DNA of 64,000 bases, taken from Candidatus Bathyarchaeota archaeon (GTDB lineage: Archaea > Thermoproteota > Bathyarchaeia > Bathyarchaeales > Bathycorpusculaceae). Below are positions 37,363 to 52,529 of this stretch, piece by piece (position 1 is the stretch's first letter; each line of letters begins with the position of its first letter). The notes under the pieces are model-generated. The model was given only the letters and a program-made list of their open reading frames with translations. It searched no databases and was not told where the DNA came from. A program made the translations under genes and the position numbers. Location: positions 96,001-160,000 of the forward strand of contig CAWAKC010000003.1 in the NCBI GenBank assembly GCA_963782525.1. Reading direction: 5' to 3'.

Positions 37363-37926
37363 ATGAGTAAAAGAAAACCCATCATTAAGATCCAAAACAT
37401 TGTAGCCTCAGTCTCTCTTAACCAAAAAATTGACTTACAAAAAATCGTTGAAAAATTCCCACAAACCGAATACAACCCCAGCGTATTCCCAGGGCTTGTT
37501 TTCAGATTAAAAAAACCCAAAACCGCAACACTGATTTTCGGCACAGGCAAAATGGTCTGTACAGGCGCTAAATCAGAAAAAGAATCACGGAGCGCAGTAG
37601 AAAAAGTCGTTAAAGAACTTCGTGGTGAAGGCATCCAAATCACAGAAAAACCAATTGTTAACATCCAGAACATCGTGGCCTCGGCTGAACTTGGCGGCGA
37701 AATCGACTTAGAAAGCCTCGTTTACAAACTCAACAAAGTAATGTATGAACCTGAACAATTCCCAGGTGCAGTCTACCGAATGGATGAACCCAAAGTAGTA
37801 TTTCTCATCTTCAGCGCAGGCAAACTCGTATGCGTTGGCGCCAAGAAAGAAGAACAGGTCTACGAAGCAGTTGACAAAATACAGGCACTGCTCGAAGAAA
37901 AAGAACTCATCTACTACCCCTCTTAA
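37363..37926 (+). CDS. tbp: TATA-box-binding protein
   Basis: Two repeats: IQNIVAS...YNPSVFPGLVFR...LIFGTGKMVCTGAK and YEPEQFPG...IFSAGKLVCVGAK. Confidence 0.97.
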   Translation: MSKRKPIIKIQNIVASVSLNQKIDLQKIVEKFPQTEYNPSVFPGLVFRLKKPKTATLIFGTGKMVCTGAKSEKESRSAVEKVVKELRGEGIQITEKPIVNIQNIVASAELGGEIDLESLVYKLNKVMYEPEQFPGAVYRMDEPKVVFLIFSAGKLVCVGAKKEEQVYEAVDKIQALLEEKELIYYPS

Positions 37927-38633: not shown

Positions 38634-38713
38634 CTTTACTCGCTAATTCTAACATTTAGTGTGGCATCGTTTATTTAGTTTAATTAACCATCACCTCTAA
38701 CGAAGGAAACCCG

Positions 38714-39652
38714 ATGGAATCGCCCGTCTGCAACGTATGTAAAACCAAAGAAGCATTCTTCTCCAGGCCACACTCAGGCGAGCGACTCTGCAAAAAATGC
38801 TTCACCGAATCCGTCGAGGCAAAAGTCCGCTCAACCATCACCCGCTACCACATGCTCAACTTCGACGACCATTTAGCAGTAGCGGTTTCAGGTGGCAAAG
38901 ACAGCCTTAGCATACTACACATCTTAGCGAAAGTTAAGAAGCGTAGACCAAAAACAACCCTGACCGCAGTCACCGTAGATGAAGGTATCAAAGGCTACCG
39001 TGACGAAGCCTTAGAAATTGCAGCAAAAAATTGTCAAAAACTCGAAATCTCTCACCACATCGTATCATTCAAAGAACTCTACGGTTTCTCATTGGACGAA
39101 ATAATCTGTAAGGCACGCGAAAAAGGACAAACGCAGTTAACTGCTTGCGCATACTGCGGCGTTTTGCGAAGAAAAGCCATCAACACTGGCGCACGACAAG
39201 TTAAAGCTACCAAAATCGCTACGGGTCACACTCTCGACGATGAGGTGCAGACGGTCTTGATGAATATTTTCAGAGGCGACATCACACGTTTATCAAAGGA
39301 GAAACCCATTACCAGCGAAGTTCATCCATTGTTTGTACAGAAGATTAAGCCGTTCTGTGAAATTCCCGAAAAAGAAAGTGCGCTCTACGCTTACGTTAAA
39401 AAAATTGCTTTTCAAGACACACCTTGCCCCTATGCATCTGAAGCCTTGCGAAACGACATCCGCGGAATGATTAACCGAATGGAACAGAAGCATGCAGGAA
39501 CAAAATTCACAGTATCCAAAGCCATAGAACGCCTACGACCAGCCCTTGAAATAACAAGTCAGAAGGAAAATTTCAAAACTTGCAGTGAATGCGGCGAACC
39601 CTCAGCGATGGACCTGTGCAAGGCTTGTGAGTTACTCAGGCACGTTCGTTAG
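38714..39652 (+). CDS. ncsA: tRNA 2-thiolation protein (TIGR00269, NcsA/TtuA family)
   Basis: PP-loop SGGKDS, CAYCGVLRR, GHTLDD, CPY, terminal Zn fingers. Confidence 0.85.
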   Translation: MESPVCNVCKTKEAFFSRPHSGERLCKKCFTESVEAKVRSTITRYHMLNFDDHLAVAVSGGKDSLSILHILAKVKKRRPKTTLTAVTVDEGIKGYRDEALEIAAKNCQKLEISHHIVSFKELYGFSLDEIICKAREKGQTQLTACAYCGVLRRKAINTGARQVKATKIATGHTLDDEVQTVLMNIFRGDITRLSKEKPITSEVHPLFVQKIKPFCEIPEKESALYAYVKKIAFQDTPCPYASEALRNDIRGMINRMEQKHAGTKFTVSKAIERLRPALEITSQKENFKTCSECGEPSAMDLCKACELLRHVR

Positions 39653-39854
39653 GCTTTGGGTTTTGTTTCTGTTCAGCCTTTAGTTTACGAAGCATCTCCG
39701 AAGCTTCCATGGCGCTGTTTGCAGCAGCGATTTTTCTGGCTTTCTGCAGGTTAATCTGATTGCCGCAGTAAGGGCAAACCTTGGTTTTTTGATCCTTAGC
39801 CGCCAATGTTAATCCACCACATTTAGCACATTTCACGATGAGTGTTGTACCCAT
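39636..39854 (-). CDS. Zinc-ribbon protein (DUF1922-like)
   Basis: CAKCG...KTKVCPYCG; ATG at 39854. Confidence 0.8.
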   Translation of the reverse strand: MGTTLIVKCAKCGGLTLAAKDQKTKVCPYCGNQINLQKARKIAAANSAMEASEMLRKLKAEQKQNPKPNERA

Positions 39855-39942
39855 TTGGGTTTGCTTCCGAAAGGCTTTAAGCCTCATCACCAAAACGCAT
39901 CTCCCGCATAATATCCCTTTTTCTTTTTTGGAGGTTGCTTAG

Positions 39943-40084
39943 TTGACTGCTATAGCTGTATCTGGTTTTAGGAAACGTGTTTGTGTGGATTGTGGCAGAC
40001 ACGTTAAGAACGGAGCGGACCGCTGTCAGATCATGCAACATGAAAGCTAACTACAAATCCAAACATAAGGGAGACAAGAAATAA
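39943..40084 (+). pseudogene. Zinc-finger protein with a one-base frameshift
   Basis: GGAGG RBS; TTG...CVDCGRHVKNGADRC then +1 frame RSCNMKANYKSKHKGDKK*, with the stop overlapping the next ATG. Confidence 0.5.
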
Positions 40085-40269
40085 TGGCAGCCCAAGACGG
40101 TTACGGCCTACTGTTTTTAGCGGTGTTTCTTGGAATTATAATAATCGTTGGAATTGCGCTTGTCGCTGTGTTTGCCCCGGAATACACAACTTTAGCTTTG
40201 CTAATCGTTGGCATTCTTGCATTCTCAATCTTGGCGTTAACGTATGGACTAGGAGGTGAAAGACAGTGA
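40084..40269 (+). CDS. Small 2-TM membrane protein (provirus)
   Basis: 61 aa, two hydrophobic helices. Confidence 0.7.
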   Translation: MAAQDGYGLLFLAVFLGIIIIVGIALVAVFAPEYTTLALLIVGILAFSILALTYGLGGERQ

Positions 40270-40580
40270 CACAGGCATCCGGCGAACCGTTCGGAGAAAA
40301 GCAAGATCATGTATGTGCTAAGTGTAAGTGGCTAAGGGATATGAAACTTAGCACCAACAAGAACCGTTTTTATCAGTGCTTCTTTGGCTATCATAAACGA
40401 ATGTACTATAGCACAGCTCAGTATAGTAGCTGTGACCGCTTCAATGCTAAGGCTTCAACACATTATAAGTCAATGGTTGCGCATAGACTTGAGCGAATAC
40501 TAACCAAACTGCACCATGTTTATGTTTGGTTAGATAAGCCCTATTGGTATATGGTTAATTGGCTGCGTAAGTACGAATAA
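40266..40580 (+). CDS. Cys-containing hypothetical protein (provirus)
   Basis: GGAGGTGA RBS; CAKC...C...C. Confidence 0.6.
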   Translation: MTQASGEPFGEKQDHVCAKCKWLRDMKLSTNKNRFYQCFFGYHKRMYYSTAQYSSCDRFNAKASTHYKSMVAHRLERILTKLHHVYVWLDKPYWYMVNWLRKYE

Positions 40581-41016
40581 GAGGCAATAGAAGCAGCCAA
40601 ACACTCTTTTTTATATTTGTACCACAATGCCACTAAAAAAGCGGTTCCCATAGTTAATTAATTAATTACAGACTAAAATAAGGATAGAATAAGCCCCTTT
40701 GGTTCTGACTATTTAATGATGCGTCAATAAGGTATTATGGCGCATGAACCATTGTTTAGTTTCTATCTAACTGTTTTGAGTTCGGTTTGGTTGTTCATAT
40801 TAATTGATATAAAATAGAAGGTTAACTGTTCACTTGTTTACCCTACTCTAATTAGATTAAAAGATTGTGCAAAGTTTCTATTAGTTGCGGTTGTGTGGGT
40901 GTATGTTGTTAGCTCTACTGTTGATGTTTTTATCTACCCTATAAGACCATACAGCAGATTTTAAAGCGCACCATATAATTATGAGCTAAAAAAGTGTAGG
41001 CTGAATGCTCAAGTTT

Positions 41017-41163
41017 CTATTGCTTATTCTCAGCTTCCCTAATCTTAGTTAGGCAGTGTTCTATCGCATGGCTTCTATTAGCGAAGGTTGTATCTTTAAC
41101 TTTCCGATCAACCCACTTTAAGAGATCATCACTTATTGTGATGGCGATTCTTTTCTTAACCAT
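41017..41163 (-). CDS. Ribbon-helix-helix (CopG) regulator, 48 aa (not in ORF track)
   Basis: MVKKRIAITISDDLLKWVDRKVKDTTFANRSHAIEHCL. Confidence 0.8.
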   Translation of the reverse strand: MVKKRIAITISDDLLKWVDRKVKDTTFANRSHAIEHCLTKIREAENKQ

Positions 41164-41195
41164 ATCACTCATTTTAACCATATCACCCTTTAACC
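41156..41195. promoter_or_regulatory. Direct-repeat operator over the RHH gene start
   Basis: TTAACCATATCAC at 41156 and 41174 plus TTAACC at 41190. Confidence 0.5.
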
Positions 41196-41243
41196 GTTTA
41201 TGTCCTATAGTATGCAGTTATACACAATCGTTATATAATACTT

Positions 41244-41606
41244 TTGATAAATACCGACATAGCCCTAAAGGTGTTTAAAATGGAAAACGTAAATCAAATA
41301 ATAAACCTACCCACAGAAGAATTTAGCATCCTTGAAAATCTATCAAAAAAAGAGAACATGACAACCGACCAATATCTAAGCGAATTGATCCATGACAAGG
41401 TAAGCAATGGGGTACTATCTAAAAGCGAAATGTGGGTTACTACGCTTGAGATGGTTATGGCCCAGCTCAACGAACATAAAGACATAAGTGACTTAAGAAA
41501 TGAAATCGCCGGCGATCTGCTTGTTGCTAAGATAAGTTTAGACTTTGATAGAACTGGAAAGGTTGACGACAAAAAAATTAAGAGCTACATATCAGAATTA
41601 TTCTGA
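41244..41606 (+). CDS. RHH-like domain protein (provirus)
   Basis: IINLPTEEFSILENLSKKENMTTDQYLSELI. Confidence 0.55.
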   Translation: MINTDIALKVFKMENVNQIINLPTEEFSILENLSKKENMTTDQYLSELIHDKVSNGVLSKSEMWVTTLEMVMAQLNEHKDISDLRNEIAGDLLVAKISLDFDRTGKVDDKKIKSYISELF

Positions 41607-41642
41607 ACATCAACTTTTTTCTTTTTTTGCAAGTCCATAATC

Positions 41643-42410
41643 TTAGACGTTATCCATTGTTTGAACTGCATAGCGCCTTGTGTACCTATAAGCGGTGGCT
41701 TCTTCTTCCAAGTCTAACGTATCCCTAACCTTTGTGATACCGGCTAAATCGTTGCCGTACTTCCGAGCGATCTCAGCGCCTTTAGTTTCCCTAAACAAGT
41801 GACACCAACATTCGGGATCAACTGCTTTAATCATTCTAAGAAGCTGGCTGCCTGACAAGTGGGTGTTCGGGTCCACCATCATTAAGTTTCCAAACGAATA
41901 GATGTTTCTTGGGAACAGATATTTAGAGTCTGGATGTTTCTTTTTCATAAACTCCAGGTATTCTATAATTAATTTAGCGTAAGAATTATCTGCAATAATA
42001 TTTTTAATTCTTGTATCTTCTTTTATTCTGAATCCTTCTTGGGTTAAAGTCCATGCTTTATGTTCTGCAATTAAATCAGAATATTGTTTGGAAATTAAAT
42101 AATTATTTGGCAATTGTCCTTTATTTATTTGGGATTTTATTAATTTAACGAATTGATAAAAGCCTCTTTTATGCTTTTTAGAGATTGTCCAAGTAATATT
42201 CAAGTAATTATCTGCAATTATTAGATCAATTATTTTTAATCTGGATATTTCCGAACGCCTTTTTCCGAATATTTTTAATAATCCAATTAATGCTTTTACC
42301 CTCAAACGCCTATATTCGTCATTTATTTTATTTGCTTCAACTAGCATTTTCTCTATATCTAAGGTTGTTAGAATGGGCCTGTTGCGGTAAATCTTTTTAG
42401 CGTTAGTCAT
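41643..42410 (-). CDS. Tyrosine recombinase, catalytic domain only
   Basis: FGKRRSEISRL, SKK, HLFR, terminal AYRY; no N-terminal binding domain. Confidence 0.8.
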   Translation of the reverse strand: MTNAKKIYRNRPILTTLDIEKMLVEANKINDEYRRLRVKALIGLLKIFGKRRSEISRLKIIDLIIADNYLNITWTISKKHKRGFYQFVKLIKSQINKGQLPNNYLISKQYSDLIAEHKAWTLTQEGFRIKEDTRIKNIIADNSYAKLIIEYLEFMKKKHPDSKYLFPRNIYSFGNLMMVDPNTHLSGSQLLRMIKAVDPECWCHLFRETKGAEIARKYGNDLAGITKVRDTLDLEEEATAYRYTRRYAVQTMDNV

Positions 42411-42838
42411 TCGGCTTTAACTCCTAAAGTTTCTATGGGTTGCAGTTCCTTCTCTAAAACTTCCTTGACGCTTCCAACATCTCTTATGCAATTTTGAATA
42501 GCTAACACATTGTTTAGGTGTTTGTACACTCCCCGGTGTTTCTTTCCTTCAGCTATGTTTTGGTATTTTAAAATAAGTGTTCGGGTGATTGGTTGGTTAA
42601 TATGTACTGTCCAGCCTAAACCCCAGCGTAGTTTTTCCCATTGGGCTAATTCAGTTTTCTTAGTGGTTAAGCCTTGCTTTAATGCTTCAAACGGATAAGT
42701 TATTTTTAGCTTCTCAAGGCGATTAACTTCTTTATCTAATTCAAGGTAATAGACTTCTAACGAGTTATGAATAGCTTGGCTTGCTGTTAACAGCTCAAGA
42801 ATAAATTGGGCTTCTCTTGGTTCTATGTGTGGTCGCAT
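42407..42838 (-). CDS. Hypothetical protein (provirus)
   Basis: 143 aa, ATGA-coupled to the recombinase. Confidence 0.65.
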   Translation of the reverse strand: MRPHIEPREAQFILELLTASQAIHNSLEVYYLELDKEVNRLEKLKITYPFEALKQGLTTKKTELAQWEKLRWGLGWTVHINQPITRTLILKYQNIAEGKKHRGVYKHLNNVLAIQNCIRDVGSVKEVLEKELQPIETLGVKAE

Positions 42839-43042
42839 ATTCTACACCTTACCTTTTTGTGTTCTTAGGGTGGGTATATTTGCTTCAAATATTGCATTCG
42901 TTTTCATGCTTTCACCAAACTATCAACATTTTTAGCTCGACATTCAAAACAATCTATTTCTCTATGGCATAAACGATAAAGTGGAGCTGGGCAAAAACTT
43001 GGATTGTTAGTTAAGTCAAACATCTATATCCCTTAACAAATT

Positions 43043-43343
43043 TTAGCGGTGTCCTAGCTTCCGCATTTTCTTATCGTGAGCTTTAGGTTTCTTGTCGGTT
43101 AAGTGGTGTTTGTGGCATTCTACTTTGTACGCTTTTGGGTTCTGATTGATGTCGCTCCATTTTTCTTTTCTACCACGTGGACCCGAACGGCTCAATTTTG
43201 TTTGCCTAATGTGTGCAAATTGGAGTTTAGAAAGGCCGCTTTTCTTTACAGCCTCTATGTTGGCAGCCATGTTTGCTAGGAGAAACTTTACGGATTAAAG
43301 CCGGCTTCCGCTTCTTAGCCCAGGTATTCGATTGATTAGCCAA
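43043..43343 (-). pseudogene. HNH-like nuclease with a frameshift
   Basis: GGAGG RBS, TTG at 43343: ...GCQHRGCKEKR then a frame change to LSKLQFAH...KVECHKHH. Confidence 0.45.
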
Positions 43344-43374
43344 TTAATTTAGCCTCCCAACAACTTTGGCAATA

Positions 43375-43737
43375 CTATCTGCTAGCGGACCTATGAAAAT
43401 TATAAGGCTCTAATTTTGCCCTGCATTCACTACAGCGCCCCCTAATTCTTTGCGGCTTTTTACTTCGCATCTTAAGAAAAACAACATCATAATCTCTTTT
43501 GGTTCTCTGAGCTAAACCGATTAACTCATTAATTGAGTAGCTTGAGAGTTCTTTTAGAAAAACGTCATTCTCAACCTTTAGGTTTTCTCTTTTTCGACCT
43601 AGCCCAATCCCGCATAAAATCCAAGTTTCTTTCTGAGTTTTTTTCCGATTTAAAAATTCAAGGCAAATAGCTCTACATTTATCCCGCAATTCAATGAATA
43701 AGGCTAAGTCGCTTTGTTGTTGTTGACTTGTTAACAT
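43375..43737 (-). CDS. Hypothetical protein (provirus)
   Basis: 120 aa with C-terminal CSEC. Confidence 0.5.
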   Translation of the reverse strand: MLTSQQQQSDLALFIELRDKCRAICLEFLNRKKTQKETWILCGIGLGRKRENLKVENDVFLKELSSYSINELIGLAQRTKRDYDVVFLKMRSKKPQRIRGRCSECRAKLEPYNFHRSASR

Positions 43738-43964
43738 GGCTTATTATCTCCATTTTTCTTAGCAAGTTCTGTTATCGCTTGGCTTAGGTCCACAAGGCAA
43801 TCTAAAAAAGAATTTTCAATTAAGCGTCTTCCGGCGTAAATCTCCATGAAGGCATGTTCATAACTGATAAACATAGTAGCAGCTACTTTGTTTTGTTCTG
43901 TTTCGTTGGGATTGTCTAAGATTTGTTGAAAATATGCTAGGGGTTTTTTGCTTAACTTTTGCAT
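43731..43964 (-). CDS. Hypothetical protein (provirus)
   Basis: 77-aa ORF in a co-oriented cluster. Confidence 0.55.
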   Translation of the reverse strand: MQKLSKKPLAYFQQILDNPNETEQNKVAATMFISYEHAFMEIYAGRRLIENSFLDCLVDLSQAITELAKKNGDNKPC

Positions 43965-44054
43965 GTCAAAAAAGAATTTGTTTTCTTCCTCTGAGCTGTC
44001 TCTTAGTTTCCTGGATTATTCGGGAAACTTGAGGCATTAAAGCCACTGTTTTGC

Positions 44055-44237
44055 TCAAACGCAATATGACCTCCAACCGTCTTTTTTCCAAATTCTTTTT
44101 TGCAGCTTCTCATTTTTCTTAAAATCCTTCAATCCTGCGTATAATTGTGCGTTAAGTAGCTGGCAGTTTTCAACCTCAAGTTCTGTTCTTATTTGTTCAA
44201 TGATCTTTTTCTGTTTCTTTTTATCATGCTTACTCAA
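44055..44237 (-). CDS. Small basic protein (provirus)
   Basis: 60 aa, Lys-rich, coupled to the upstream gene. Confidence 0.55.
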   Translation of the reverse strand: MSKHDKKKQKKIIEQIRTELEVENCQLLNAQLYAGLKDFKKNEKLQKRIWKKDGWRSYCV

Positions 44238-44500
44238 TTTGTTTTAACTCCTTTAGCTAGTCTTTCCCTGTTAAACTCGGATAGCAACCAAACAACGCCT
44301 CCAACAGTGCCAAAAATAGAGAGAGCGATTTCAGCAGTTAAAATAAGTAAGTTTGGTTCACCCACCAAAACTTTATGGCTTGGATTAAGAAATATTAAAG
44401 CTAAGACAAAAGCAAAAAAACCGTTTCCAACTGTTACGATTGAGAACAAAAGATACTTTGATGCACTCCAGTAGCTAGTTTGTTTACTCATATTTTCCAC
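44234..44500 (-). CDS. Small 2-TM membrane protein (provirus)
   Basis: Two hydrophobic helices. Confidence 0.65.
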   Translation of the reverse strand: MENMSKQTSYWSASKYLLFSIVTVGNGFFAFVLALIFLNPSHKVLVGEPNLLILTAEIALSIFGTVGGVVWLLSEFNRERLAKGVKTN

Positions 44501-44735
44501 CTTTCAAACGAGAAACCCACCGAGAACCCCACTTCCCTAACGCTGCTTTTACCTGAGGATCTAGCAAATAGAACACAAGCATAGAAGCGACTAAACTTTG
44601 AATGCAAAACGACCATGTAAGAAAAGGCGATATATCAAAAGCAAAAGTTAGAATAATGAAAATTTGGCTGCAAATTATGCTGTAATATGCTAAGATGTAG
44701 CGGAGATATTTTTTTGCCTTGTTTTCTTGTGTCAT
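44484..44735 (-). CDS. Small 2-TM membrane protein (provirus)
   Basis: Two hydrophobic helices, basic tail. Confidence 0.65.
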   Translation of the reverse strand: MTQENKAKKYLRYILAYYSIICSQIFIILTFAFDISPFLTWSFCIQSLVASMLVFYLLDPQVKAALGKWGSRWVSRLKGGKYE

Positions 44736-44747
44736 GTCTTATTCTCC

Positions 44748-45989
44748 CTAATAATTCTGCATGCGTTTCCTAGCGCCAACTACGCCTGCCATAACTGCTA
44801 AGGATAAAGCTGCAATAATGGACCCTTGCGGAATAGTAATCCAGCCTAAAGCCGTCAAAATAATAGCAGTTAATACCACTATGACAGCGGCAGCCTCACT
44901 AGTTAACTCACTAAAACACCCAGCCGCAAAAATAATAATTAAAGCCGGAATTAAAACGGCTGTTGTTACGGGGAATCCTGCGCCAAGAAAGTCTAAGCTG
45001 AAGGGGTCATGTGCTTTTGTGTATTCTCCTAAGAGGTAATGTTCATAGTAGAAGGTTCCATAGGTTGCGTGATCTATGGTTATGGTTACTTGGTAGCTTG
45101 TGGCGTTGTCTACGCTTGTCCATGTATAGCTAAAAAGGTTATCGCTTGAAAATATATGGGTGTATTCTACTGCTCCGCTTGTAGCGTTCGTAATAGTTAC
45201 GTTAACGCTGTTTGTGTTGCTAGTTAAGTCTTCATAGCTAATTGTGATTGCGCCAGTTGGGGTAAGGAAATCTCGTATGGCTGAAGTGTGAATGTACTGG
45301 TAGAGTTGTAAAGTTTCTTTAGGAAAATCTACGCCTCGCAAAGTTAATTGTACACCAGTGACAGCAGTAGCAACTAAATCGCCATAAACATTAGGCGTTA
45401 ATCCATCAGTAATAACAAGTCGGTAACGGCTGCCTGTAACTAAACCTAAAACTACGCTGTTCTGAGAATCAACAAGCCGCTTATCAATTGTTAAGTAGCT
45501 GCCAGCCCAATAAATTTGAGCTTCAATATACCGATAAGTTTTCAGCATTCCCACTTGATCCATAAAATTGATAACGTAATCTGAAGTATCAGCCCGTGAA
45601 CTAAAGAATAAGAAAAGTGGGTGATTTCCATGTGTTTGATCGTTAGAAGTTAACCAGTATTCCCTATGCGAGCTATTATAGTCAAAGCTGAAATATAGAA
45701 TTGTAGAGTTTGTTTCCCAGGAATAAGAACTGCTATGTACGCTGAAGGTTGCAACTGGAAGAATCTCATTTGCATAGTGAGCTGTAACAGTTACAGCTCC
45801 GGATAACAAAGCAGTAACATCGCTAGTGTATTTGTTATATGGACCGCTGAAAATCCATGTTTGCGTGTAAGTTATAGCTTTAACTTGTTGGGGAAAATAA
45901 GCGAAGAAAAGAGACGCAACTAATAGAACAAGCAATGTTAGCATCGCTGTTTTTTGCTTCATTATTTTTTTCTCGTTGTTTTTGCTCAT
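44748..45989 (-). CDS. Putative virion adhesin/spike: signal peptide, beta-rich ectodomain, 3 C-terminal TM helices
   Basis: ATG at 45989 just after the capsid-like gene; S/T/Y-rich domain with NxS/T sequons; hydrophobic C-terminus. Confidence 0.65.
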   Translation of the reverse strand: MSKNNEKKIMKQKTAMLTLLVLLVASLFFAYFPQQVKAITYTQTWIFSGPYNKYTSDVTALLSGAVTVTAHYANEILPVATFSVHSSSYSWETNSTILYFSFDYNSSHREYWLTSNDQTHGNHPLFLFFSSRADTSDYVINFMDQVGMLKTYRYIEAQIYWAGSYLTIDKRLVDSQNSVVLGLVTGSRYRLVITDGLTPNVYGDLVATAVTGVQLTLRGVDFPKETLQLYQYIHTSAIRDFLTPTGAITISYEDLTSNTNSVNVTITNATSGAVEYTHIFSSDNLFSYTWTSVDNATSYQVTITIDHATYGTFYYEHYLLGEYTKAHDPFSLDFLGAGFPVTTAVLIPALIIIFAAGCFSELTSEAAAVIVVLTAIILTALGWITIPQGSIIAALSLAVMAGVVGARKRMQNY

Positions 45990-45990
45990 G

Positions 45991-46263
45991 TTAGAACCCC
46001 GATTTAGAACCCAACCCAAGATAAAGCAAGACACCCATAGCGCCAACAACGATTAAGGCCACAGTGACTAAACCCATAGCAATCCAAATGTTAGTTTGAA
46101 CTGAAGTCCATGTACTGTTAGCTTTAGCGCTCCAAGTGTTGTTAGGTGTTTGACTGTTAACAAGCGCATTAACTACGATAATTCCGACTAGCAAAGAAAC
46201 CATTAAGCCAACCAACACAAAAATTATAGCTCCAACTCCCTTCTTGTTAGAAATCAATTTCAT
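45991..46263 (-). CDS. Putative major capsid protein of spindle-shaped-virus type (or pilin-like)
   Basis: 90 aa; two long hydrophobic helices joined by a loop with NNT and NST sequons; KKG-V class III-like leader; strong GAGGAGG RBS. Confidence 0.65.
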   Translation of the reverse strand: MKLISNKKGVGAIIFVLVGLMVSLLVGIIVVNALVNSQTPNNTWSAKANSTWTSVQTNIWIAMGLVTVALIVVGAMGVLLYLGLGSKSGF

Positions 46264-46318
46264 TTCTTAGTTTCCCCTCCTCTCTGTTCTTAAGGTAGCC
46301 TTTTGATTGTTGCAAACT

Positions 46319-46465
46319 TTAGTTTTGAAGTCCATCATCTTTTTTTCTTCTCCGCTTATCTAGAGGTATGTTAAACAGAGCCCTTGCAATTCTGATTAGT
46401 TCACGGTTTTCATGGTTGTTTTTTGTTACTGCTTTGCGATGCTTGTCTTTGTCTTTGTACGGCAC
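46319..46465 (-). CDS. 48-aa basic protein (not in ORF track), possible nucleoprotein
   Basis: MPYKDKDKHRKAVTKNNHENRELIRIARALFNIPLDKRRRKK; directly upstream of the capsid-like gene. Confidence 0.5.
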   Translation of the reverse strand: MPYKDKDKHRKAVTKNNHENRELIRIARALFNIPLDKRRRKKDDGLQN

Positions 46466-46729
46466 TGTTATGCCTCTAAGATATTAATATCCGATTTTAA
46501 CGTATAAGCTATTTGAAACCTGAATAAATTACAACTGCTTAAAATAATTCGGAATATATTACAAAAATTAAATTCTAATTGTTCAGATATTGGCCCCAAT
46601 TCTTTATGGAAAAAAAATTAATTAGTAATAATTAAAACAAATATGTAAAAATTACAATAAAAATGCCTTTTTTTGTAAAAAACGCAAGGTTTTTATGTCC
46701 ATGACAGTATAGCGTTAACCATTGAAAGG

Positions 46730-46927
46730 ATGATAAATATGATAGATAAACAAAAAAAGTACCCTCCTGAAGTTGTGCGAGCTGTTCAAGCCCAACTCAA
46801 AAGAGAGTACAGATTAAGAAAAAAACAAAAGGCTGAAGCAGCCCAGCGTGGTGGCCCGACTGCAACAGCCCCGCATAACCCCCCAACTACGATTAAGCAA
46901 TCAGAGGAGCTTTGCATAAATGAATAG
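46730..46927 (+). CDS. Small basic protein (provirus)
   Basis: 65 aa; first gene of the replication transcript. Confidence 0.5.
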   Translation: MINMIDKQKKYPPEVVRAVQAQLKREYRLRKKQKAEAAQRGGPTATAPHNPPTTIKQSEELCINE

Positions 46928-47083
46928 CCCAAAACCCCTTATTAGTTTTTTGCCAAAAATAGAGACGTTCTCAAAATGTTCTCAATGCCAACACTGGAGA
47001 AAAAAATGTTGTCTTCTGGGCTATACTGCAAGCGCAAATTCTAAGCCCTGTCATCAAGGCACTCTAAGGGGCAAACAAGACGC

Positions 47084-47344
47084 ATGACCTCGCAAAATTT
47101 CCTAGGGGAAGGCCCAAATAGAAACTCCAAATATTACGCAACTATCTCAAGCTGCAAATGCTGTGAATATTCAAACTGTCAACACCGACAAAAACATGGT
47201 TTCTGCATTTCTGAAAATGGAACACAAGCAACAGCCAACGAATTTAGACACGGAAACATAGGAGAACTTGAACGCCAAACTATCATTGAAACAAACCAAT
47301 GGTGCATAAACGAGCATTTAATCAATGGAGTGCCGACACAATGA
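47084..47344 (+). CDS. Cys-rich hypothetical protein (provirus)
   Basis: CKCCEYSNC...C; stop overlaps the primase ATG. Confidence 0.55.
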   Translation: MTSQNFLGEGPNRNSKYYATISSCKCCEYSNCQHRQKHGFCISENGTQATANEFRHGNIGELERQTIIETNQWCINEHLINGVPTQ

Positions 47345-49869
47345 ACGAACAGCAAGCTATACTAGTGCAGCGACTAAAAGAAGCCGAACTAAGCCTTAAC
47401 CGATTTTTTGAGGTAAAACCAGACAAAGCACCGGCAGAAGGTAAGGGTTACACAGCTCACCTTAGAACCCCTGAAGAAATGGATAAAGCTGGAGTAACAC
47501 GATGGGGAATAATGGGAGGCGACTTCTTAGTACCCATAGACACAGATATTCCAGAAATGGGTCCAATAATTAGAAAAATTTTACCCCGAACGTTTGAAAC
47601 TTTAAGCGTAGGCAGACAGCTACCACATTTCTATTTTCTTGTTTGGGGTAAAAGTGGAAAGCAACCTCCAAACGGAATATTACATATACCAAATGATTTC
47701 GATGAGAACGGAAAAAAAAGAGGAGCTGGAGAAATAAGAGTAGGTAATCAATATCTTGTTGCTCCAGGAACAGATGTTGACTATTACAACAGCAAAGGCG
47801 TTCATATCATAGGCAGATACAAAATTTTGAATGATGTACCCATAGCTAAACTTGAATACGATACCTTCATGGAAGCCTTAAAACCCTACAGATCAGAAAA
47901 CGAGAAAATATCATTGGAAGAAATGAAAACTGGAGTAGGAGCTAATTTTAGACACGCTAAAGCCATGAGCTATGCATATCATTTAATCAGCGTTACTAGG
48001 TTGGGTTACGACCTAGCATTAATGGAGCTTAACCGTTTTGGAAACGCTTGCACTCCACCGCTAATAGATCAAGATTATTTTGACAGAGCATTAAAAGCAG
48101 CAATCAATTTAGAAGCAGCAACACAAGCACGAATTGATGATAAAAAAAGAACTGTTCAAGAATGGGCTAAAATTCTATATGACGGCCAAGAATTACGAAC
48201 AGTTGAAAAAATTAAGGTTGAAGTAGAGCAAGAAGATAATCTGCCAAACTATGATTATTTCTGTCCTATCTTAGATAAGAGAGGAACAAGAGAGCCGTTT
48301 AAGCCGGCTAAAGTTGCTAAGTGGTTAAGTGAACACAGACATTTCAAAGCAGATAGAACAACCGACTTACTTTATTTCTACGATGGTCAAAGTTGGAGAG
48401 ATAACGGCGAAGTTTATTTACAAGAAATTCTCGGAAAAATTTTGGAAACAGAAAACAGACATGGCATATACACCGATGTTTTGCACGATTTAAAAGCCTT
48501 AGTTTATAATGATATAAAATTTAGCCAAAAAATTGCTTTAGAGAACGGATTATTAGACGTTGAAAGTCAAGAACTTTTACCATTTAACTTTAACGAAATG
48601 CCTTTCCACAAACTACCAATAACCTACAACAAAGACGCTAAATGCCCAAATTGGGAAGCATTCATATCTCAAGTGGTAAACTCTGATGATTTATTAACGA
48701 TCCAAGAATGGAGCGGATTCTTACTTTTACCAGATTACCGTTTCCACAAACTCTTATGGGTTCATGGTGAAGGCCGCAATGGAAAAGGCGTATGGCAAAG
48801 AACAATGGAAGCGATCCTAGGGGAAAACAATGTTTCAAGTATTGGCCTAGAAGAATTTAACGGCGGTCACCGTTTCGCATTAAGACAACTTTACGGAAAA
48901 CTCTTTAACCCATGTTCAGAACCAAACACAACTTACCCATTACAAACCCCATTATTGAAAAAAGCAACTGGACAAGACACAATAGAAGCCGAGATAAAAG
49001 GCAAACAGAACAGGTTAAAATTCAGAAACTACGCAAAAATAACGGTATTAGCTAATAAATTTCCTAAAGTGGAAGATACAACAACCGCATTCAAGGAAAG
49101 ACGTTTATTTATCAAATTCCCAAACGAATTTACCGGAACCAAACAAATACAGAACATAGAAGCTAATTGGCTAATAGTCAATGATGAAAAAAGCGGAATT
49201 CTTAATTGGATGCTCAAAGGCTTAGAACGACTCTTAACTAATGGATATTTTACCGAAAGCAAAACCCAACAAGAAACAGAAGCAGAATTTCTAAGAGCAA
49301 GCGACACAATCGGCGCTTTCCTAAAAGAAATGATAGTTTACAATAAAAACTTTGTAACAACACGAAGCGAAGCATACGAGAGCTATAAGAAATATTGCGA
49401 TACTATAGGATTAGAAGCGGAAAGCGAAAAGGCTTTTACTCAAAGATTAAAGGACACACCAAAAATTAGTGTTTGCTCAGTCAAGAAGCCTAAACAAGAA
49501 AGAGCCTGGAAAGGCATAACTTTAAAACTAATCAGCGATGACGGCGAAATTACAGAAGATAAGTCAAAAATAGACAATTTTACCCCCGAAAAAGATACAG
49601 CAGATACACAAGATACACCTATTGCACACTGTCCCACGTCTAACGATGTTACAAATAAACAAGTAGTAGAAGGTGTATCTCGTGTATCTAGTGTATCCGA
49701 AAGCGAACTTAAAGGATATACGCAGCTTGTTTGTGTTTTCTGTCAAAAAGGCATAATGGATAACGACTGGAAACAAGACGATTTTACCTGGGATAAGCCA
49801 GCTCACAAGAAATGCTATGATACTAAGAAATCAGAGTTAGCAGCTCAAGATGATAAGGAGGTTTCTTAG
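47341..49869 (+). CDS. Primase-helicase (Prim-Pol-like N-terminus plus P4/D5 SF3 helicase)
   Basis: IDTD, PHFYF, GEIR..QYLVAPG; NGLLD, HKLPITY, Walker A GEGRNGKG, ANKFP, ERRL; ATG at 47341. Confidence 0.9.
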   Translation: MNEQQAILVQRLKEAELSLNRFFEVKPDKAPAEGKGYTAHLRTPEEMDKAGVTRWGIMGGDFLVPIDTDIPEMGPIIRKILPRTFETLSVGRQLPHFYFLVWGKSGKQPPNGILHIPNDFDENGKKRGAGEIRVGNQYLVAPGTDVDYYNSKGVHIIGRYKILNDVPIAKLEYDTFMEALKPYRSENEKISLEEMKTGVGANFRHAKAMSYAYHLISVTRLGYDLALMELNRFGNACTPPLIDQDYFDRALKAAINLEAATQARIDDKKRTVQEWAKILYDGQELRTVEKIKVEVEQEDNLPNYDYFCPILDKRGTREPFKPAKVAKWLSEHRHFKADRTTDLLYFYDGQSWRDNGEVYLQEILGKILETENRHGIYTDVLHDLKALVYNDIKFSQKIALENGLLDVESQELLPFNFNEMPFHKLPITYNKDAKCPNWEAFISQVVNSDDLLTIQEWSGFLLLPDYRFHKLLWVHGEGRNGKGVWQRTMEAILGENNVSSIGLEEFNGGHRFALRQLYGKLFNPCSEPNTTYPLQTPLLKKATGQDTIEAEIKGKQNRLKFRNYAKITVLANKFPKVEDTTTAFKERRLFIKFPNEFTGTKQIQNIEANWLIVNDEKSGILNWMLKGLERLLTNGYFTESKTQQETEAEFLRASDTIGAFLKEMIVYNKNFVTTRSEAYESYKKYCDTIGLEAESEKAFTQRLKDTPKISVCSVKKPKQERAWKGITLKLISDDGEITEDKSKIDNFTPEKDTADTQDTPIAHCPTSNDVTNKQVVEGVSRVSSVSESELKGYTQLVCVFCQKGIMDNDWKQDDFTWDKPAHKKCYDTKKSELAAQDDKEVS
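49593..49698. repeat. Inverted iteron arrays (putative origin of replication)
   Basis: AGATACA(G/C) x3 with a 9-bp period, 54-bp spacer, GTGTATC(T/C) x3 with a 9-bp period. Confidence 0.75.
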
Positions 49870-51054
49870 TTGGAAGCTCCAGCCCAAACCGCTATTTTTT
49901 GCCCTGAATGCCAAAGCCCGAAGTATTTTAAGGATGGCAAACGCAAACTCTCAAACGGTGAAATAGCCCAGCGTTATATTTGCCGTGTATGTGGCTACCG
50001 CTATACATACCCATCTAGCTTAAATGCTGTCTCGGACAATTCTGAAGGTAGCCAAATAAGCGCAAAGGCGAAAAATTTGGACCCTACGCAGAAACATAAA
50101 TTCTGTGTGGGAGATGCAATAAAAGTAGATGCTGACACCAAAGGCTTGTTAACACTGTTCTATGCCTACATGGAAAAAGAAGCCTACTCCGTTGAAAGTG
50201 ACTATGTTGATAAAGTTAAGCATCTTGCTATTCGTGGAGCTAACTTAGCGGACCCTGAAAGCGTTAAAACTGTAATTGGACAAATGCACCGGAAAGATGG
50301 CAAACCAACTAAAAACGGAACTAAGATGCTTTATTGCTATGCTTATGATGCCTTCGCTAAAATGCTTAAACTTCAATGGAATATACCAAAATACACACAA
50401 GAAGATCACGATCCCTTTGTACCTGATGAAACCGAATTAGACGCATTAATTAACGCTGCAAAATCTAAGCTATTGGCCGCTTTTCTACAATGCTTAAAAG
50501 AAACGTTTGGCGATCCTGGAGAAGTACTGCGTATTCGATGGCTTGACGTTGACACCAACAACAAGAAAATAAGCATAAGTTATCCAGTGAAGAACCATCT
50601 TACTCGAACCCTGCAAGTTTCTAACCGACTGTTATCAATGATTGACGCTTTACCCAAAAAAGACGATAGAGTTTTCCCGACTTCGTACTCAAATATGCTT
50701 CACCGTTTCGTAACTATGCGTAAGAGAACCGCTGAAATTCACCAAAACCCTAGGCTATTAGCAGTTGACTTTACAGCCTTTAGAACTTGGGCTGGAACAA
50801 TGATAGCCTACCACAGCAACGGAAACGTGCTTTTAGTCCAGAAGCTACTAGGTCACAAGCAAATTAAAAACACAATGAAATATATCGGCAAAATAAATTT
50901 CCAAAACCAAGACTTTGAAACCACAAGCGCATCAACCGTTGAAGACATACTTCGATTAGGGAAAGAAGGCTGGATTGAATACTCTGTTATCAGTATTAGC
51001 AACGTAGAACACCACTGTTTCAAGAAGCCTAAGAGGTTCAGCAGCTATGTCTAA
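49870..51054 (+). CDS. Tyrosine integrase with N-terminal zinc finger
   Basis: CPEC...CRVC, KN, FR, LLGH, TMKY; next to the candidate att. Confidence 0.85.
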   Translation: MEAPAQTAIFCPECQSPKYFKDGKRKLSNGEIAQRYICRVCGYRYTYPSSLNAVSDNSEGSQISAKAKNLDPTQKHKFCVGDAIKVDADTKGLLTLFYAYMEKEAYSVESDYVDKVKHLAIRGANLADPESVKTVIGQMHRKDGKPTKNGTKMLYCYAYDAFAKMLKLQWNIPKYTQEDHDPFVPDETELDALINAAKSKLLAAFLQCLKETFGDPGEVLRIRWLDVDTNNKKISISYPVKNHLTRTLQVSNRLLSMIDALPKKDDRVFPTSYSNMLHRFVTMRKRTAEIHQNPRLLAVDFTAFRTWAGTMIAYHSNGNVLLVQKLLGHKQIKNTMKYIGKINFQNQDFETTSASTVEDILRLGKEGWIEYSVISISNVEHHCFKKPKRFSSYV

Positions 51055-51149
51055 AAGTGCAGTAGTAAGAATAAAAGACCATGTGAAAAGGAACAGAAAG
51101 GCTTTTCATCATACAGGTTCTTTAATGGTTTGGTGGGGAGAGCAAGCAC

Positions 51150-51509
51150 ATGAGCGATGAGGAACAACTTAAAGCCAGATCCCATTTGACGGAACTCGCG
51201 GTTGCTTATTTCAAGAAGGAAGGTTTCAAGGTTAACAGCGAAAACGTCAAACTGGAAGGACACAGCGGCGTCGCACGACATTTTGATTTGATTGTACAGA
51301 AAGGCCGGTTGGAGCAAGGCGTTTGGGTGAGGGATTGGAATCGAACTATCGGCGTCAATGTCATTATCAACTTGGATACTTCTTCGGAAGACGTGGATCT
51401 GTCAAGTCCCATCATGATTGGCGAAAAATTTAGCGATCATGCCAAATCCTACAGCAACCGACGCAAAATCACATTGCTCACAAAACAAAAAATCGGCAGC
51501 TTCCGCTAA
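51150..51509 (+). CDS. PD-(D/E)xK restriction-endonuclease-like (Mrr-cat) protein
   Basis: LEGHSGVARHFDLIV, KFSDHAKSY. Confidence 0.7.
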   Translation: MSDEEQLKARSHLTELAVAYFKKEGFKVNSENVKLEGHSGVARHFDLIVQKGRLEQGVWVRDWNRTIGVNVIINLDTSSEDVDLSSPIMIGEKFSDHAKSYSNRRKITLLTKQKIGSFR

Positions 51510-52087
51510 GTTTTCAAGTACTCGTCTAAGATACCTTCCTGCTCAAGGGTTCCCAACCAATCAACTGAGCCGACAAGGCAGTCTCGGCGTTTCTCTAAAA
51601 CCTGCAAAATCCAACCAACAACTTCCTCAACAGTTTTTCCAGTAACATCCAACTCGCAGACTCTGCCAGCATGCACCTCAACCGCTTCGCCAAGGCATAC
51701 ATCCAAAATCTCCGCCTGCAAATTCTCCCACATCTTGCTGCCCGTGTAACCACATTTTTCCATGAATTGCTTGAGTTCTTTGGGGTTTCTTCGAAGAACA
51801 AAAACGAGGGCAACGTGGTTGGTTGGGGTCACGGCGCTTGCGTAATGACCATCTATGACGATGTTGGCGTTGGGTGAGGCATCGATGGTTTCGCCAATTT
51901 TTTCTTGCATGGCTTCTTCGTTAATGATTATGGTGTTTCGTTCTTTGTCTTCGCCTAGCGTTAGATTATTGGTCTTGGCAAAATCAGTTAAGTTGATGTA
52001 TTCTGCCCCAAGTTTTGCAACGAGTTGTTTAGCGGTGGTTGTTTTTCCCACGCAAGGCGTGCCTGTAATGAGGATGACACGTTTCAT
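51506..52087 (-). CDS. Adenylate kinase AK6/Fap7 family
   Basis: ITGTPCVGKTT, VIDGH, ENLQAE; real start at 52087 because the longer ORF-track start overlaps rnpB. Confidence 0.9.
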   Translation of the reverse strand: MKRVILITGTPCVGKTTTAKQLVAKLGAEYINLTDFAKTNNLTLGEDKERNTIIINEEAMQEKIGETIDASPNANIVIDGHYASAVTPTNHVALVFVLRRNPKELKQFMEKCGYTGSKMWENLQAEILDVCLGEAVEVHAGRVCELDVTGKTVEEVVGWILQVLEKRRDCLVGSVDWLGTLEQEGILDEYLKT

Positions 52088-52172
52088 GAAGCTATTTTGG
52101 CTGGTCACATAATTATTGATTGTGGCTAAGTTTATGAGTATGTTTATTGCTTGCGGATGCGCTTTTTCGGTT

Positions 52173-52486
52173 GGGCTGGCGAGTTGGTGTGTGGCTTTCG
52201 GGTCCCAAATGGGATCTGAGGAAACTCCGCCCACATGTAGAATTGCAGTCCCGTCGTTGGGACAACGCGAGAGCGTTGGCAACGGAGCAGAAACGAAACG
52301 TCCACCCAGACTTGGCGATGACACATTTGTGATGTCGAGTGTGCTGGATTGGAAACGGTGAAACGGCTGTCCTGCAAGTGGAAAGGGCAAACAGTCGCCG
52401 ATGAAGTATCTACCGGAAGGCGCGGGTAGCCCGATTAGCAGAATGCCACGATAACAGAAGGCGGGTTACTGCCAACACACCAGTCT
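52173..52486 (+). ncRNA. rnpB: RNase P RNA
   Basis: GAGGAAACTCC (CR-I), GCAGAAAC, GGTGAAACGG, AACAGAAGGCGGGTTA (CR-V); 5' GGGCTGG..GTTGG pairs with 3' CCAAC..CCAGTCT. Confidence 0.93.
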
Positions 52487-52529
52487 ATTTTACTAATACA
52501 CCAGCTTTTTGTCTACTCATTACGTTTTT

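Follow-up and report, generated by a model that had tools for sequence, protein, structure and literature searches.

Only one spindle-type virus of Bathyarchaeia has been described, Huangdivirus 1 (Huangdiviridae; Bathyarchaeia baizomonadales, QMYA01000001), and it is known from a single genome (PMC10541130, PMC12451623). It is a provirus of at least 40 genes that include a tyrosine integrase, an AAA+ ATPase and a glycosyltransferase; its VP1, VP2 and VP3 were detected by HHsearch against fuselloviruses, and VP1 and VP3 are hairpin proteins with N-x-S/T motifs (PMC10541130). Another group, the Nipumfusiviridae, is delimited by genomes of 27-38 kb and by a set of core genes, among them those of the coat protein and the ATPase, which its members share at 30% amino-acid identity or more (PMC12451623, PMC10866085). 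Their coat-like hairpin is described with a long loop and sequons, an ATPase is reported for all known spindle-shaped viruses, and the available part of the same article mentions neither an integrase nor a primase for them (0 mentions each; PMC10866085). Integrated elements that combine an integrase with a primase-polymerase/superfamily-3 helicase fusion (Primpol-S3H) are the commonest kind in Thaumarchaeota, and their nature has been given as "viruses or plasmids" (PMC6563490). Here we analyse 64,000 nucleotides (nt) of Candidatus Bathyarchaeota archaeon (assembly GCA_963782525.1, 2.87 Mb in 12 contigs), positions 96,001 to 160,000 of contig CAWAKC010000003.1 (G000:C3:96001-160000), called the window in the following. 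The window holds an integrated element of 11,217 bp (39879-51095) in which a core of this kind is joined to an operon for membrane proteins, one of them a hairpin protein of 90 amino acids (aa) resembling spindle-virus coat proteins. The element probably represents a small, so far undescribed virus in dormant form.

Boundaries and insertion site

Either end of the element is marked by a copy of a perfect direct repeat of 10 bp, GAAAGGCTTT (39869-39878 and 51096-51105), and its GC content is 0.379 as against 0.448 in the flanks. A preliminary description, made from the letters of the window alone, had placed a discrete integrated element of about 11 kb at 39869-51105; both copies of the repeat match these limits exactly, and the empty site confirms them. 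When 40 other genomes of the same genus were searched with the DNA of window positions 37000-54000, ten of them (G413, G370, G038, G362, G401, G404, G415, G421, G411 and G402) proved to have this empty site, which contains a single copy of the core. The match of the left flank ends at query position 2879 and that of the right flank begins at 14097 on the same contig, the two overlapping by 10 nt, and all 20 genes of the element are missing from the empty sites. When the two junctions, attL and attR, are aligned with three empty sites, the insertion is directly visible; the core of G413 carries one mismatch.

The insertion site is intergenic. On one side lies a host gene for a zinc-ribbon protein (DUF1922 by Pfam; minus strand), and the site is also upstream of a conserved 119-aa gene. 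The true start of the DUF1922 gene (MGTT..., 39854) was inferred from its orthologue in genome G403, and attL is located about 15 bp upstream of it. No tRNA genes are present in the window. The element is a site-specifically integrated mobile element of the tyrosine-recombinase type, and all its 20 open reading frames (ORFs) are intact. Since its left end is conserved in the sister element of G403 and gives short matches in other genomes of the family, this end is probably the integrase-arm part of attP.

Integration and replication genes

Searches of the 20 ORFs covered all of them in Pfam, 10 in PHROGs and 9, together with one flanking ORF, in NCBIfam. The 394-aa integrase matches PF00589 (E 6.5e-10; 39.5 bits, cut-off 27.1) and the integrase family phrog_1 (E 6.5e-17). 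Its gene starts 1 nt after the stop codon of the replication gene and ends 41 bp before attR, so that the core at 51096-51105 is outside of it and the ORF is unsplit. The integrase gene stays intact, and therefore the attachment site lies outside the gene.

The 856-aa replication protein matches TIGR01613, "phage/plasmid primase, P4 family" (E 5.7e-56; 189.6 bits, cut-off 108.7), phrog_864 (E 3.3e-74) and a primase-helicase of solved structure (PDB 7ola; E 1e-11). D5_N, DUF5906 and Pox_D5 of Pfam all fall within residues 349-723, and judged by these homologies the C-terminal part is a P4/D5-type superfamily-3 helicase. Residues 1-330 have no match in Pfam. A protein-language-model look-up places them among clusters of Prim-Pol (PF09250) with a score of 0.95, which is to be taken as a lead only, and D-x-D and H motifs are recognised by eye only; this N-terminal region of 330 aa is probably a primase-polymerase domain. 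The coupling of a primase-superfamily-3 helicase to an integrase, as announced in the preliminary description, is thereby corroborated, and all ORFs named there (48, 90, 413, 83, 88, 856, 394 and 54 aa) are present.

The primase-helicase belongs to the generic P4 family of phages and plasmids, members of which occur in 514 records of plasmids and 1,321 of phages. This distribution would also suit a non-viral integrative plasmid, or "cryptic integrated element", with the integrase and primase-helicase as selfish core and the membrane operon as exchangeable cargo other than a capsid, as would the prevalence of Primpol-S3H elements with integrase in Thaumarchaeota (PMC6563490). The cargo would then comprise surface, adhesion, exclusion or vesicle-related proteins, and the likeness of the hairpin would reflect a shared two-helix membrane architecture or an exapted viral gene. 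We consider such a plasmid possible, although on the evidence below unlikely.

The 90-aa hairpin protein

The preliminary description had noticed a two-helix hydrophobic protein of 90 aa with sequons. AlphaFold2 models it as a helical hairpin (residues 8-37 and 46-82; predicted local distance difference test, pLDDT, 87) lacking a globular domain, and the sequons are at N41 and N49. HMMER scan of 1.84 billion representatives retrieved 36 relatives of 70-160 aa at E <= 1e-3, two long multi-repeat relatives being left out. A second search gave 67 cluster representatives, none of them annotated as capsid; they are named "hypothetical" or bear names of which some are evidently spurious (MnhB, YidH). 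One homologue, 65% identical, is named "Candidatus Bathyarchaeia archaeon" at NCBI.

An alignment was constructed from the query and 32 of the 36 matches (A2, 33 sequences; P0073, P0075, P0080 and P0088 were dropped). It consists of a variable N-terminus, a basic K/R-G motif, helix 1, a loop of the form W-S-x-x-A-N-x-T and helix 2. Of the 33 rows, 28 carry an [AM]N-x-[ST] sequon; in the 90-aa protein, a conserved N-x-T sequon stands where helix 2 begins. The K-K-G motif that precedes helix 1 in the 90-aa protein itself would be compatible with processing.

The hairpin fold is too simple to discriminate, and therefore sequence profiles were tested against controls. With all filters off, the A2 profile was run on a set of 31,346 six-frame ORFs no shorter than 40 aa, comprising 30,489 decoys from the genome of the window and 857 viral ORFs from SSV1, PAV1, SSV19, His1 and TPV1. 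While the query itself scores 111 bits, ranks 2 and 3 are occupied by VP1 of SSV1 and VP1 of SSV19 (18.0 bits, E 0.003 each), above all host decoys, the best of which reaches 14.4 bits. They are followed by ORF21 of His1 (13.7 bits; 13.7-15 across runs) and TPV1 8215-8553 (11.5 bits), and no PAV1 ORF is matched. His1 ORF21 we take to be the coat protein VP21, and PAV1 ORF121 and its counterpart in TPV1 are presumably coat proteins as well; these designations are absent from the records.

Searched as whole records, each of four viruses yields a single match to the profile. In SSV1 it is 12771-12980, inside the VP1 ORF (E 8.6e-6), in SSV19 the VP1 gene and in His1 the ORF21 gene. In the 35.6-kb record of NMP1 (BK067782), a member of the Nipumfusiviridae, it is ORF5, an 88-aa hairpin (26.3 bits, E 1.5e-7), for which a separate profile script gives 28.4 bits (E 1.7e-6, Z = 31,346). 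ORF5 is one of two adjacent hairpin ORFs, ORF5 and ORF6, either of which may be the authors' capsid protein as far as the available part of their text indicates (PMC10866085). As a control for specificity, other two-helix or hairpin proteins from related loci score 6.4 bits at most. In the reverse direction, a single-sequence search with SSV1 VP1 ranks the 90-aa ORF best among the 30,489 ORFs of its own genome (13.3 bits, E 0.11), and with SSV19 VP1 it comes second by 0.1 bit. Model and profiles together support the view that the 90-aa protein has the architecture of spindle-virus major capsid proteins and a specific, if weak, similarity to them, which makes it a candidate for this function.

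A pilin was considered and rejected. The protein is a two-helix hairpin with no globular domain, and its family occurs in 6 of 401 genomes of the class, next to integrases; the preliminary description had named an ordinary pilin or membrane protein with chromosomal orthologues outside mobile elements as the finding that would contradict it, and this is not what was observed.

Outside the window, at C3:232686 of the same genome, an ORF of 96 aa encodes a pair of hydrophobic helices and, in a long loop, an N-x-T motif. This ORF is the best own-genome match in the single-sequence search with NMP1 ORF5 (16.5 bits, E 0.016).

The 413-aa protein and its operon

The minus-strand operon encodes, in this order, proteins of 48, 90, 413, 83 and 88 aa. 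The succession of basic protein, hairpin, large anchored protein and small membrane proteins is the order given for spindle-virus structural modules in annotation tables. Hydrophobic stretches are found in only five proteins of the element, those of 61, 83, 88, 90 and 413 aa.

The structure model of the 413-aa protein (pLDDT 81.6) displays a signal-like N-terminal helix, beta-sandwiches at residues 43-112, 125-217 and 233-319, and three C-terminal hydrophobic helices. The sandwiches are FN3-like (Z 9-10 by VIA-align), and a second VIA look returned FN3 domains only. All 53 relatives of the protein are "hypothetical" and stem mainly from short metagenome contigs. Among predicted viral structures (BFVD), the top three matches are two proteins without a name, of 811 aa (4e-11) and 676 aa (6e-8), and one of 727 aa from a Nitrosopumilus spindle-shaped virus (9e-8), the last being the best named match. 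Each of them covers about 400 alignment columns; their TM-scores are low (0.17-0.29), as expected because of the beads-on-string architecture. From its equal length, the 676-aa protein may be ORF676 of PAV1. An archaeal virus protein from acid mine drainage comes next, and then phage fibres at about 1e-6. The large membrane protein which had been proposed beside the 90-aa gene is thus present, and it appears to be secreted and anchored.

The three C-terminal helices (329-407) superimpose on residues 1162-1233 of SSV19 VP4 (7xdi_F) with Z 8.9 and a root-mean-square deviation of 2.5 A over 70 residues, where Z below about 13 can arise by chance for helical units. In SSV19 these residues of VP4 form a three-helical bundle, and such bundles make up a ring on which the first VP1 layer stacks (PMC9351363). 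The model thus weakly suggests that the 413-aa protein shares the layout of SSV19 VP4, sandwich followed by three helices. The 413-aa profile finds nothing in six-frame ORFs or whole records of SSV1, PAV1, SSV19, His1, TPV1 and NMP1.

An assignment of the 48-aa protein as an analogue of VP2 was considered and dropped, no family or homologue supporting it. The start of this protein, "MPYKD", is by eye common with a 217-aa ORF of locus L022 (see below).

Large secreted proteins anchored at their C-terminus are also common host genes. According to the ORF list, the element is flanked, at a distance of a few kb, by two secreted paralogues of 852 and 912 aa (34408-36966 and 53905-56643), each with a signal peptide and a membrane anchor at its C-terminus; from their sequences they are probably host surface proteins. 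Together with the generic FN3-like nature of the 413-aa ectodomain, such genes would fit a host genomic islet in which a surface adhesin and small membrane proteins are moved by an integrase, with no episomal life. We regard this as very improbable, as the element encodes its own replication protein, its set of 20 genes is absent at the empty sites, and the 413-aa family occurs in none of 40 other genomes of the genus.

Relatives and exchange of cassettes

Own genome included, the 413-aa family was found in 4 and the 90-aa family in 6 of the 401 class genomes. Of the 40 other genomes of the genus, one carries the 90-aa family. Genes of this latter family are located next to integrases or within clusters of unknown genes. 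Both genes occur together in the window, in loci L001, L022, L024, L028, L029, L030 and L032, and also in genome G096. Locus L001 (JAAYAN010000301.1, 4 kb) was assigned by binning to the bacterial Ignavibacteria, most likely in error, the contig being rather that of an archaeal virus or element; this binning was not used.

The conserved cluster of L022 and L024 begins with the gene for an 827-917-aa protein. Next come two genes for small membrane proteins, then that of a 413-type protein, one for a membrane protein of 133-139 aa and one for a larger 413-type paralogue; the order of families 7, 4, 2, 0, 1 and a second family-0 gene is conserved. The 90-type gene is located 3-6 kb downstream, and the whole cluster is set in at least 20 kb of genes for unknown, basic or membrane proteins. 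Pfam gave nothing for nine of ten proteins of the cluster and only matches below the cut-off for the tenth. Only two genes are common to these loci and the window element, the 90-aa gene (65-76% identical) and the 413-aa gene (46-59%). Another cluster resembling L022 is present in G294, a genome of the same genus.

This pattern would be expected from a helper-dependent satellite or a recent hybrid, that is, an integrase-primase plasmid which captured the genes for hairpin coat and tail anchor from a larger virus of the L022/L024 type. The shared pair of genes, the other unknown and membrane genes of L022/L024, which extend over 20 kb or more, and the related cluster in G294 agree with it. So do the missing ATPase and the lack of a counterpart of the gene of about 130 aa which follows that of the large protein in SSV19, PAV1 and L022. 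Profiles of families 1, 2, 4 and 7 detect nothing in the window's genome, in keeping with capture. Against the proposal, no helper of the L022 type is present in that genome. Further points against it are the intact state of all 20 ORFs and the perfect att repeats. The archaeal spindle-virus satellites pSSVx and pSSVi are not known to carry a coat gene of their own. Very small archaeal viruses exist, and therefore 11 kb would not be too small for autonomy. We consider a satellite or hybrid quite unlikely.

A second group of relatives shares the backbone of the element. Genome G403 carries an insert of 12,776 bp at the identical att site, with the identical core and conserved element ends. Compared with the window element, its integrase is 80% identical, the ribbon-helix-helix (RHH) protein 76%, the zinc protein 53% and the primase-helicase only 28%. 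G406 has a 4.8-kb version with both cores, and integrase remnants are located at the same site in G409, G412 and G416. In genome G288, three copies of the 90-type gene are each found within 3-5 kb of a zinc-ribbon integrase 32% identical to that of the window.

The G288 elements (L060, L061 and L062, at about 126, 188 and 283 kb of G288:C1) are integrase elements of 6.6-8 kb. They share a cassette of about 1 kb, 86-96% identical in DNA, that consists of a 176-186-aa gene and the hairpin gene, and their primase-helicases differ (822 vs 1,183 aa). L062, of about 6.6 kb, encodes a small basic protein, a 159-aa secreted protein, an RHH protein, a 176-aa protein, the hairpin, a winged-helix protein, a second RHH protein, the 822-aa primase-helicase and the integrase.

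Because G403 has a different module, G406, G409, G412 and G416 have shorter or decayed versions and G288 has small elements of its own, the backbone is, as far as sequence comparison tells, that of a family of site-specific elements whose membrane/structural cassette is exchangeable. A common backbone with exchangeable cassettes would provide a clean natural case for module exchange between plasmids and viruses. One may go further and suppose that one integrase/primase-helicase backbone with a fixed att site swaps whole cassettes and passes in this way between plasmids and minimal viruses or coat-encoding satellites. The window copy would then have the coat hairpin and tail anchor of a larger L022/L024-type virus, the G403 copy an unrelated set of secreted proteins and the three 6.6-8 kb copies of G288 little beyond the hairpin gene. 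We find this extended proposal doubtful; if true, hardly any spindle-type replicons would be smaller or simpler than these, at 6.6-11 kb and lacking an ATPase.

Nature of the element

Several observations lead us to favour an element that forms virions. With the 90-aa profile, coat genes from three independent virus families outscore all 30,489 host decoys, and other hairpin membrane proteins are not picked; the sequon of the loop is conserved; the 413-aa protein appears to have the sandwich-plus-three-helix design of a fusellovirus tail and has its best named match in a spindle-shaped virus; and the order of the operon mirrors that of spindle-virus structural modules. The same observations speak against an integrative plasmid with non-capsid cargo. 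The joint occurrence of the 90-aa and 413-aa genes in the window and seven other loci and the patchy distribution of both families likewise favour a virus. Autonomous and helper-dependent forms taken together, we hold a virion-forming element to be fairly probable. The narrower proposal, the integrated genome of a small autonomous temperate archaeal virus, spindle-shaped and with a VP1-type hairpin capsid, is made tentatively, as its chance appears to be a little less than even.

A number of results weigh against the viral interpretation. The first concerns packaging. As the preliminary description had remarked, none of the three libraries detects an HK97, jelly-roll, terminase or other capsid family or an AAA+ family, and within their coverage no AAA+ or packaging ATPase is found, the sole P-loop domain being the helicase part of the 856-aa protein. 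Second, the similarity of the 90-aa protein to capsid proteins is weak, 18-28 bits on low-complexity hydrophobic helices. The A2 profile misses SSV1 VP3 (-0.2 bits) and PAV1 ORF121; hhalign of the family against the single SSV1 VP1 yields a probability of 35% only, and 0.3% against VP3; in reverse single-sequence searches from NMP1 ORF5, His1 and TPV1 the 90-aa ORF is not prominent. Fold searches with the model (Foldseek in PDB and BFVD, VIA-align wide) returned only generic helical hairpins such as ATP synthase c, Esx and designed bundles, nothing significant. Third, the Z of 8.9 for the helical unit of the 413-aa protein is inside the chance range of the tool, and no sequence or profile relation links the 413-aa family to VP4 of SSV1 or SSV19 (hhalign below 1%) or to PAV1 ORF676.

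The remaining objections come from relatives and from traces of infection. G403 has no 90-type gene, and its membrane module differs (proteins of 121 aa, 863 aa, the latter secreted, and 69 aa); the G288 elements have the hairpin gene and no 413-type gene. No IMG/VR relatives were obtained with the 413-aa protein, the primase, the 413-aa alignment or the alignment of close 90-aa relatives, in scans that rest on few peptide patterns. A k-mer script detected no array of clustered regularly interspaced short palindromic repeats (CRISPR) in the 12 contigs of the genome. Spacer matches had been proposed as a check; DNA search of the element against 250 genomes of the family gave no full-length spacer-like match, only marginal ones of 22-28 nt. 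Terminal repeats, which mark circular contigs, are lacking in 13 short related contigs. The integrative plasmid gains from the identical site and backbone of G403 with its other cassette, from the decayed or shorter versions in G406, G409, G412 and G416, and from the want of an ATPase and of IMG/VR relatives. Rival explanations are kept alive because the ATPase is missing, the scores are weak, the cassette of G403 is different and the G288 elements are tiny.

A circle of about 11.2 kb recombined through its core GAAAGGCTTT with the region between the DUF1922 gene and the 119-aa gene. If the element is a virus, it would after excision replicate as an episome by means of the primase-polymerase/superfamily-3 helicase fusion and the host replisome. 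Regarding the particle, we infer that it would be made by the minus-strand operon. The glycosylated 90-aa hairpin would polymerise into a shell by hydrophobic helix-helix contacts. The 413-aa protein would occupy a pole of the particle; embedded between the hairpins by the three-helix unit of its C-terminus, it would expose its three FN3-like sandwiches on the outside for host binding. The small hydrophobic proteins might be minor components. Release would proceed by budding, with no lysis.

Such a virus would represent a second, very different spindle-type lineage for Bathyarchaeia, which are abundant sediment archaea. It would also imply that shells of the VP1 type are compatible with a plasmid-like primase-helicase/integrase core and can do without the supposedly universal ATPase. 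The candidate coat protein escapes standard virus finders, its family being named "hypothetical", "MnhB" and "YidH" in public databases, and the 90-aa profile could in that case be used to find more such viruses.

Gene inventory

Features of the element are listed in Table 1. Besides the integrase, the element encodes a second, compact recombinase-like protein of 255 aa. It has no N-terminal domain, gives weak invertase and XerA matches in NCBIfam and has counterparts in the G403 and G288 elements. The "RHH regulators" of the preliminary description are reduced to one putative regulator with a single sub-threshold match. From gene layout, the divergent intergenic region at 46466-46729 is presumed to hold promoters and perhaps an origin.

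Table 1. Features of the integrated element, in window positions
Feature	Position	Strand	Basis or remarks
attL core, GAAAGGCTTT	39869..39878		direct repeat; empty sites in 10 genus genomes
Left end of element, ~50 bp; probable integrase-arm part of attP	39879..39936		conserved in G403 sister element; short matches in other family genomes
61-aa hydrophobic protein	40084..40269	+	no Pfam family; 77% DNA match in G370:C2
104-aa Cys-containing (Cys-rich) protein	40266..40580	+	no family
54-aa putative RHH regulator	41017..41181	-	RHH_1 E 0.013, below Pfam cut-off; 76% identical to G403 counterpart
120-aa protein	41244..41606	+	no known family
255-aa second tyrosine-recombinase-like protein	41643..42410	-	Phage_integrase E 9e-6, 26.0 bits vs cut-off 27.1
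143-aa soluble protein	42407..42838	-	no known family
Four small soluble ORFs, 75/120/77/60 aa	43043..44237	-	no family; 75-aa (isoelectric point, pI, 10.6) and 60-aa (pI 9.7) both basic
88-aa hydrophobic protein	44234..44500	-	no family; overlaps 83-aa ORF
83-aa hydrophobic protein	44484..44735	-	no family; overlaps 88-aa ORF
413-aa secreted/anchored protein, candidate tail, adaptor or adhesin	44748..45989	-	structure model
90-aa helical-hairpin protein, candidate major capsid protein	45991..46263	-	profile searches, structure model, sequon
48-aa basic protein, first gene of minus-strand operon	46319..46465	-	pI 10.5; no family
Divergent intergenic region between membrane-protein and replication operons	46466..46729		gene layout
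Three small ORFs, 65/55/86 aa	46730..47344	+	55-aa Cys-rich protein 53% identical to part of G403 108-aa ORF
856-aa replication protein	47299..49869	+	D5_N, DUF5906, Pox_D5, TIGR01613
394-aa tyrosine integrase, N-terminal zinc ribbon	49870..51054	+	PF00589; intact; 80% identical to G403 integrase
attR core, second GAAAGGCTTT copy	51096..51105		direct repeat

Other mobile DNA in the genome

A second island of low GC content (0.37-0.41) extends over 18000-27000. It contains a 455-aa tyrosine integrase (25014-26381; PF00589, E 2.4e-9) dissimilar to the 394-aa one and a TFIIB-type zinc-ribbon protein (24541-24981), and probably represents a further integrated element. The 10-nt att core recurs a third time at 19453, near the edge of this island, which may be due to chance. 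The third low-GC stretch, 57000-63902, encodes a regulator of the HxlR type (59285-59752), a protein resembling lipocalins (60286-60753; E 3e-48) and a transposase of the DDE class (63051-63902).

Outside the element, 52827-53846 encodes a truncated family-B DNA polymerase that covers only positions 134-449 of the PF00136 profile and is preceded by an out-of-frame piece at 52666-52845. Polymerase-like stretches with 68-85% DNA identity occur elsewhere in many genomes of the genus, and the genome of the window has its own copy at C12:11402-12478.

Further mobile genes of this genome lie outside the window (C9:65063-66337, C1:83921-85099, C6:36137-37243, C7:19028-19399 and C8:53661-55016). They comprise two primase-helicases 41-42% identical to that of the window, several integrase paralogues, one of them a C-terminal fragment only, and homologues of two small proteins of the G403 element. 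Their sequences suggest that the genome holds further elements of such kind.

Comparison with known viruses and elements

In literature searches and in the available text of five articles, supplementary tables not covered (PMC10541130, PMC12451623, PMC13573593, PMC10866085, PMC6563490), we found no account of a Bathyarchaeia element of 11 kb that combines primase-helicase and integrase with a VP1-like gene. By the published description alone, the element is set apart from Huangdivirus by its 20 ORFs, its one hairpin gene, its primase-helicase and the lack of an ATPase. The defining features of Fuselloviridae, Nipumfusiviridae, Halspiviridae and Thaspiviridae exclude it from all four families, and the fusellovirus- or halspivirus-type affiliation of the preliminary description cannot be sustained in this respect.

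Nipumfusiviridae (NMP1, BK067782) and Thaspiviridae (NSV1) come closest in the capsid-like gene, NMP1 ORF5 being the best match of this kind (26-28 bits). The long hairpin loop with sequons, the origin of the best named structural match of the 413-aa protein from a Nitrosopumilus spindle-shaped virus, and a mesophilic host of the same phylum-level group add to the likeness. In contrast, genomes of Nipumfusiviridae measure 27-38 kb as against 11.2 kb, only the hairpin protein is common, and the element has no ATPase, which excludes membership; virions of the Nipumfusiviridae are themselves only predicted. Halspiviridae and Thaspiviridae have linear genomes and a protein-primed family-B DNA polymerase. 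Pfam detects no such polymerase within the element, which integrates as a circle via att, and membership of both was rejected.

The resemblance to Fuselloviridae is that of a temperate element with tyrosine integrase and small circular genome (records of SSV19 and SSV1, 13-15 kb), whose candidate coat is a two-helix, presumably glycosylated hairpin (VP1, 18 bits), with a large candidate tail protein that may end in the same way in beta-sandwich and three-helix bundle, and a small basic protein beside the coat gene. However, the SSV integrase gene holds attP and splits upon integration, whereas that of the element is unsplit, with att 41 bp downstream; the replication protein is a primase-helicase, and the host is mesophilic or sedimentary. 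By profile and hhalign, the element has no homologues of VP2, VP3, VP4, the DnaA-like ATPase or C131, and PHROGs gives nothing for the structural ORFs. Membership of Fuselloviridae was rejected because of the unsplit integrase and the absence of VP2, VP3, VP4 and DnaA-like homologues.

PAV1 and TPV1, spindle-shaped viruses of Thermococcales, resemble the element in layout, with a small membrane coat gene, further membrane proteins, a small membrane protein after each large one of the lectin or sandwich type, and an RHH gene. They differ in that PAV1 proteins show no sequence similarity and TPV1 reaches 11.5 bits only. PAV1, whose record annotates no integrase, is presumably non-integrating. 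Pleolipoviridae, pleomorphic viruses with a core of VP3-like membrane protein, VP4-like spike and VP8-like NTPase, were compared via PHROGs profiles, which include archaeal viruses; these give no match for the membrane proteins, and no NTPase of their kind was seen.

In its backbone, the element is most akin to the cryptic integrated elements of Thaumarchaeota and to archaeal integrative plasmids, which, as far as the available text describes them, likewise combine an integrase with a primase-polymerase/superfamily-3 helicase fusion, are smaller than 20 kb and target intergenic sites or tRNA genes (PMC6563490). Unlike the cryptic elements, it carries a capsid-like hairpin gene and a gene for a tail-like protein, and these two genes therefore give a concrete reason to call it viral.

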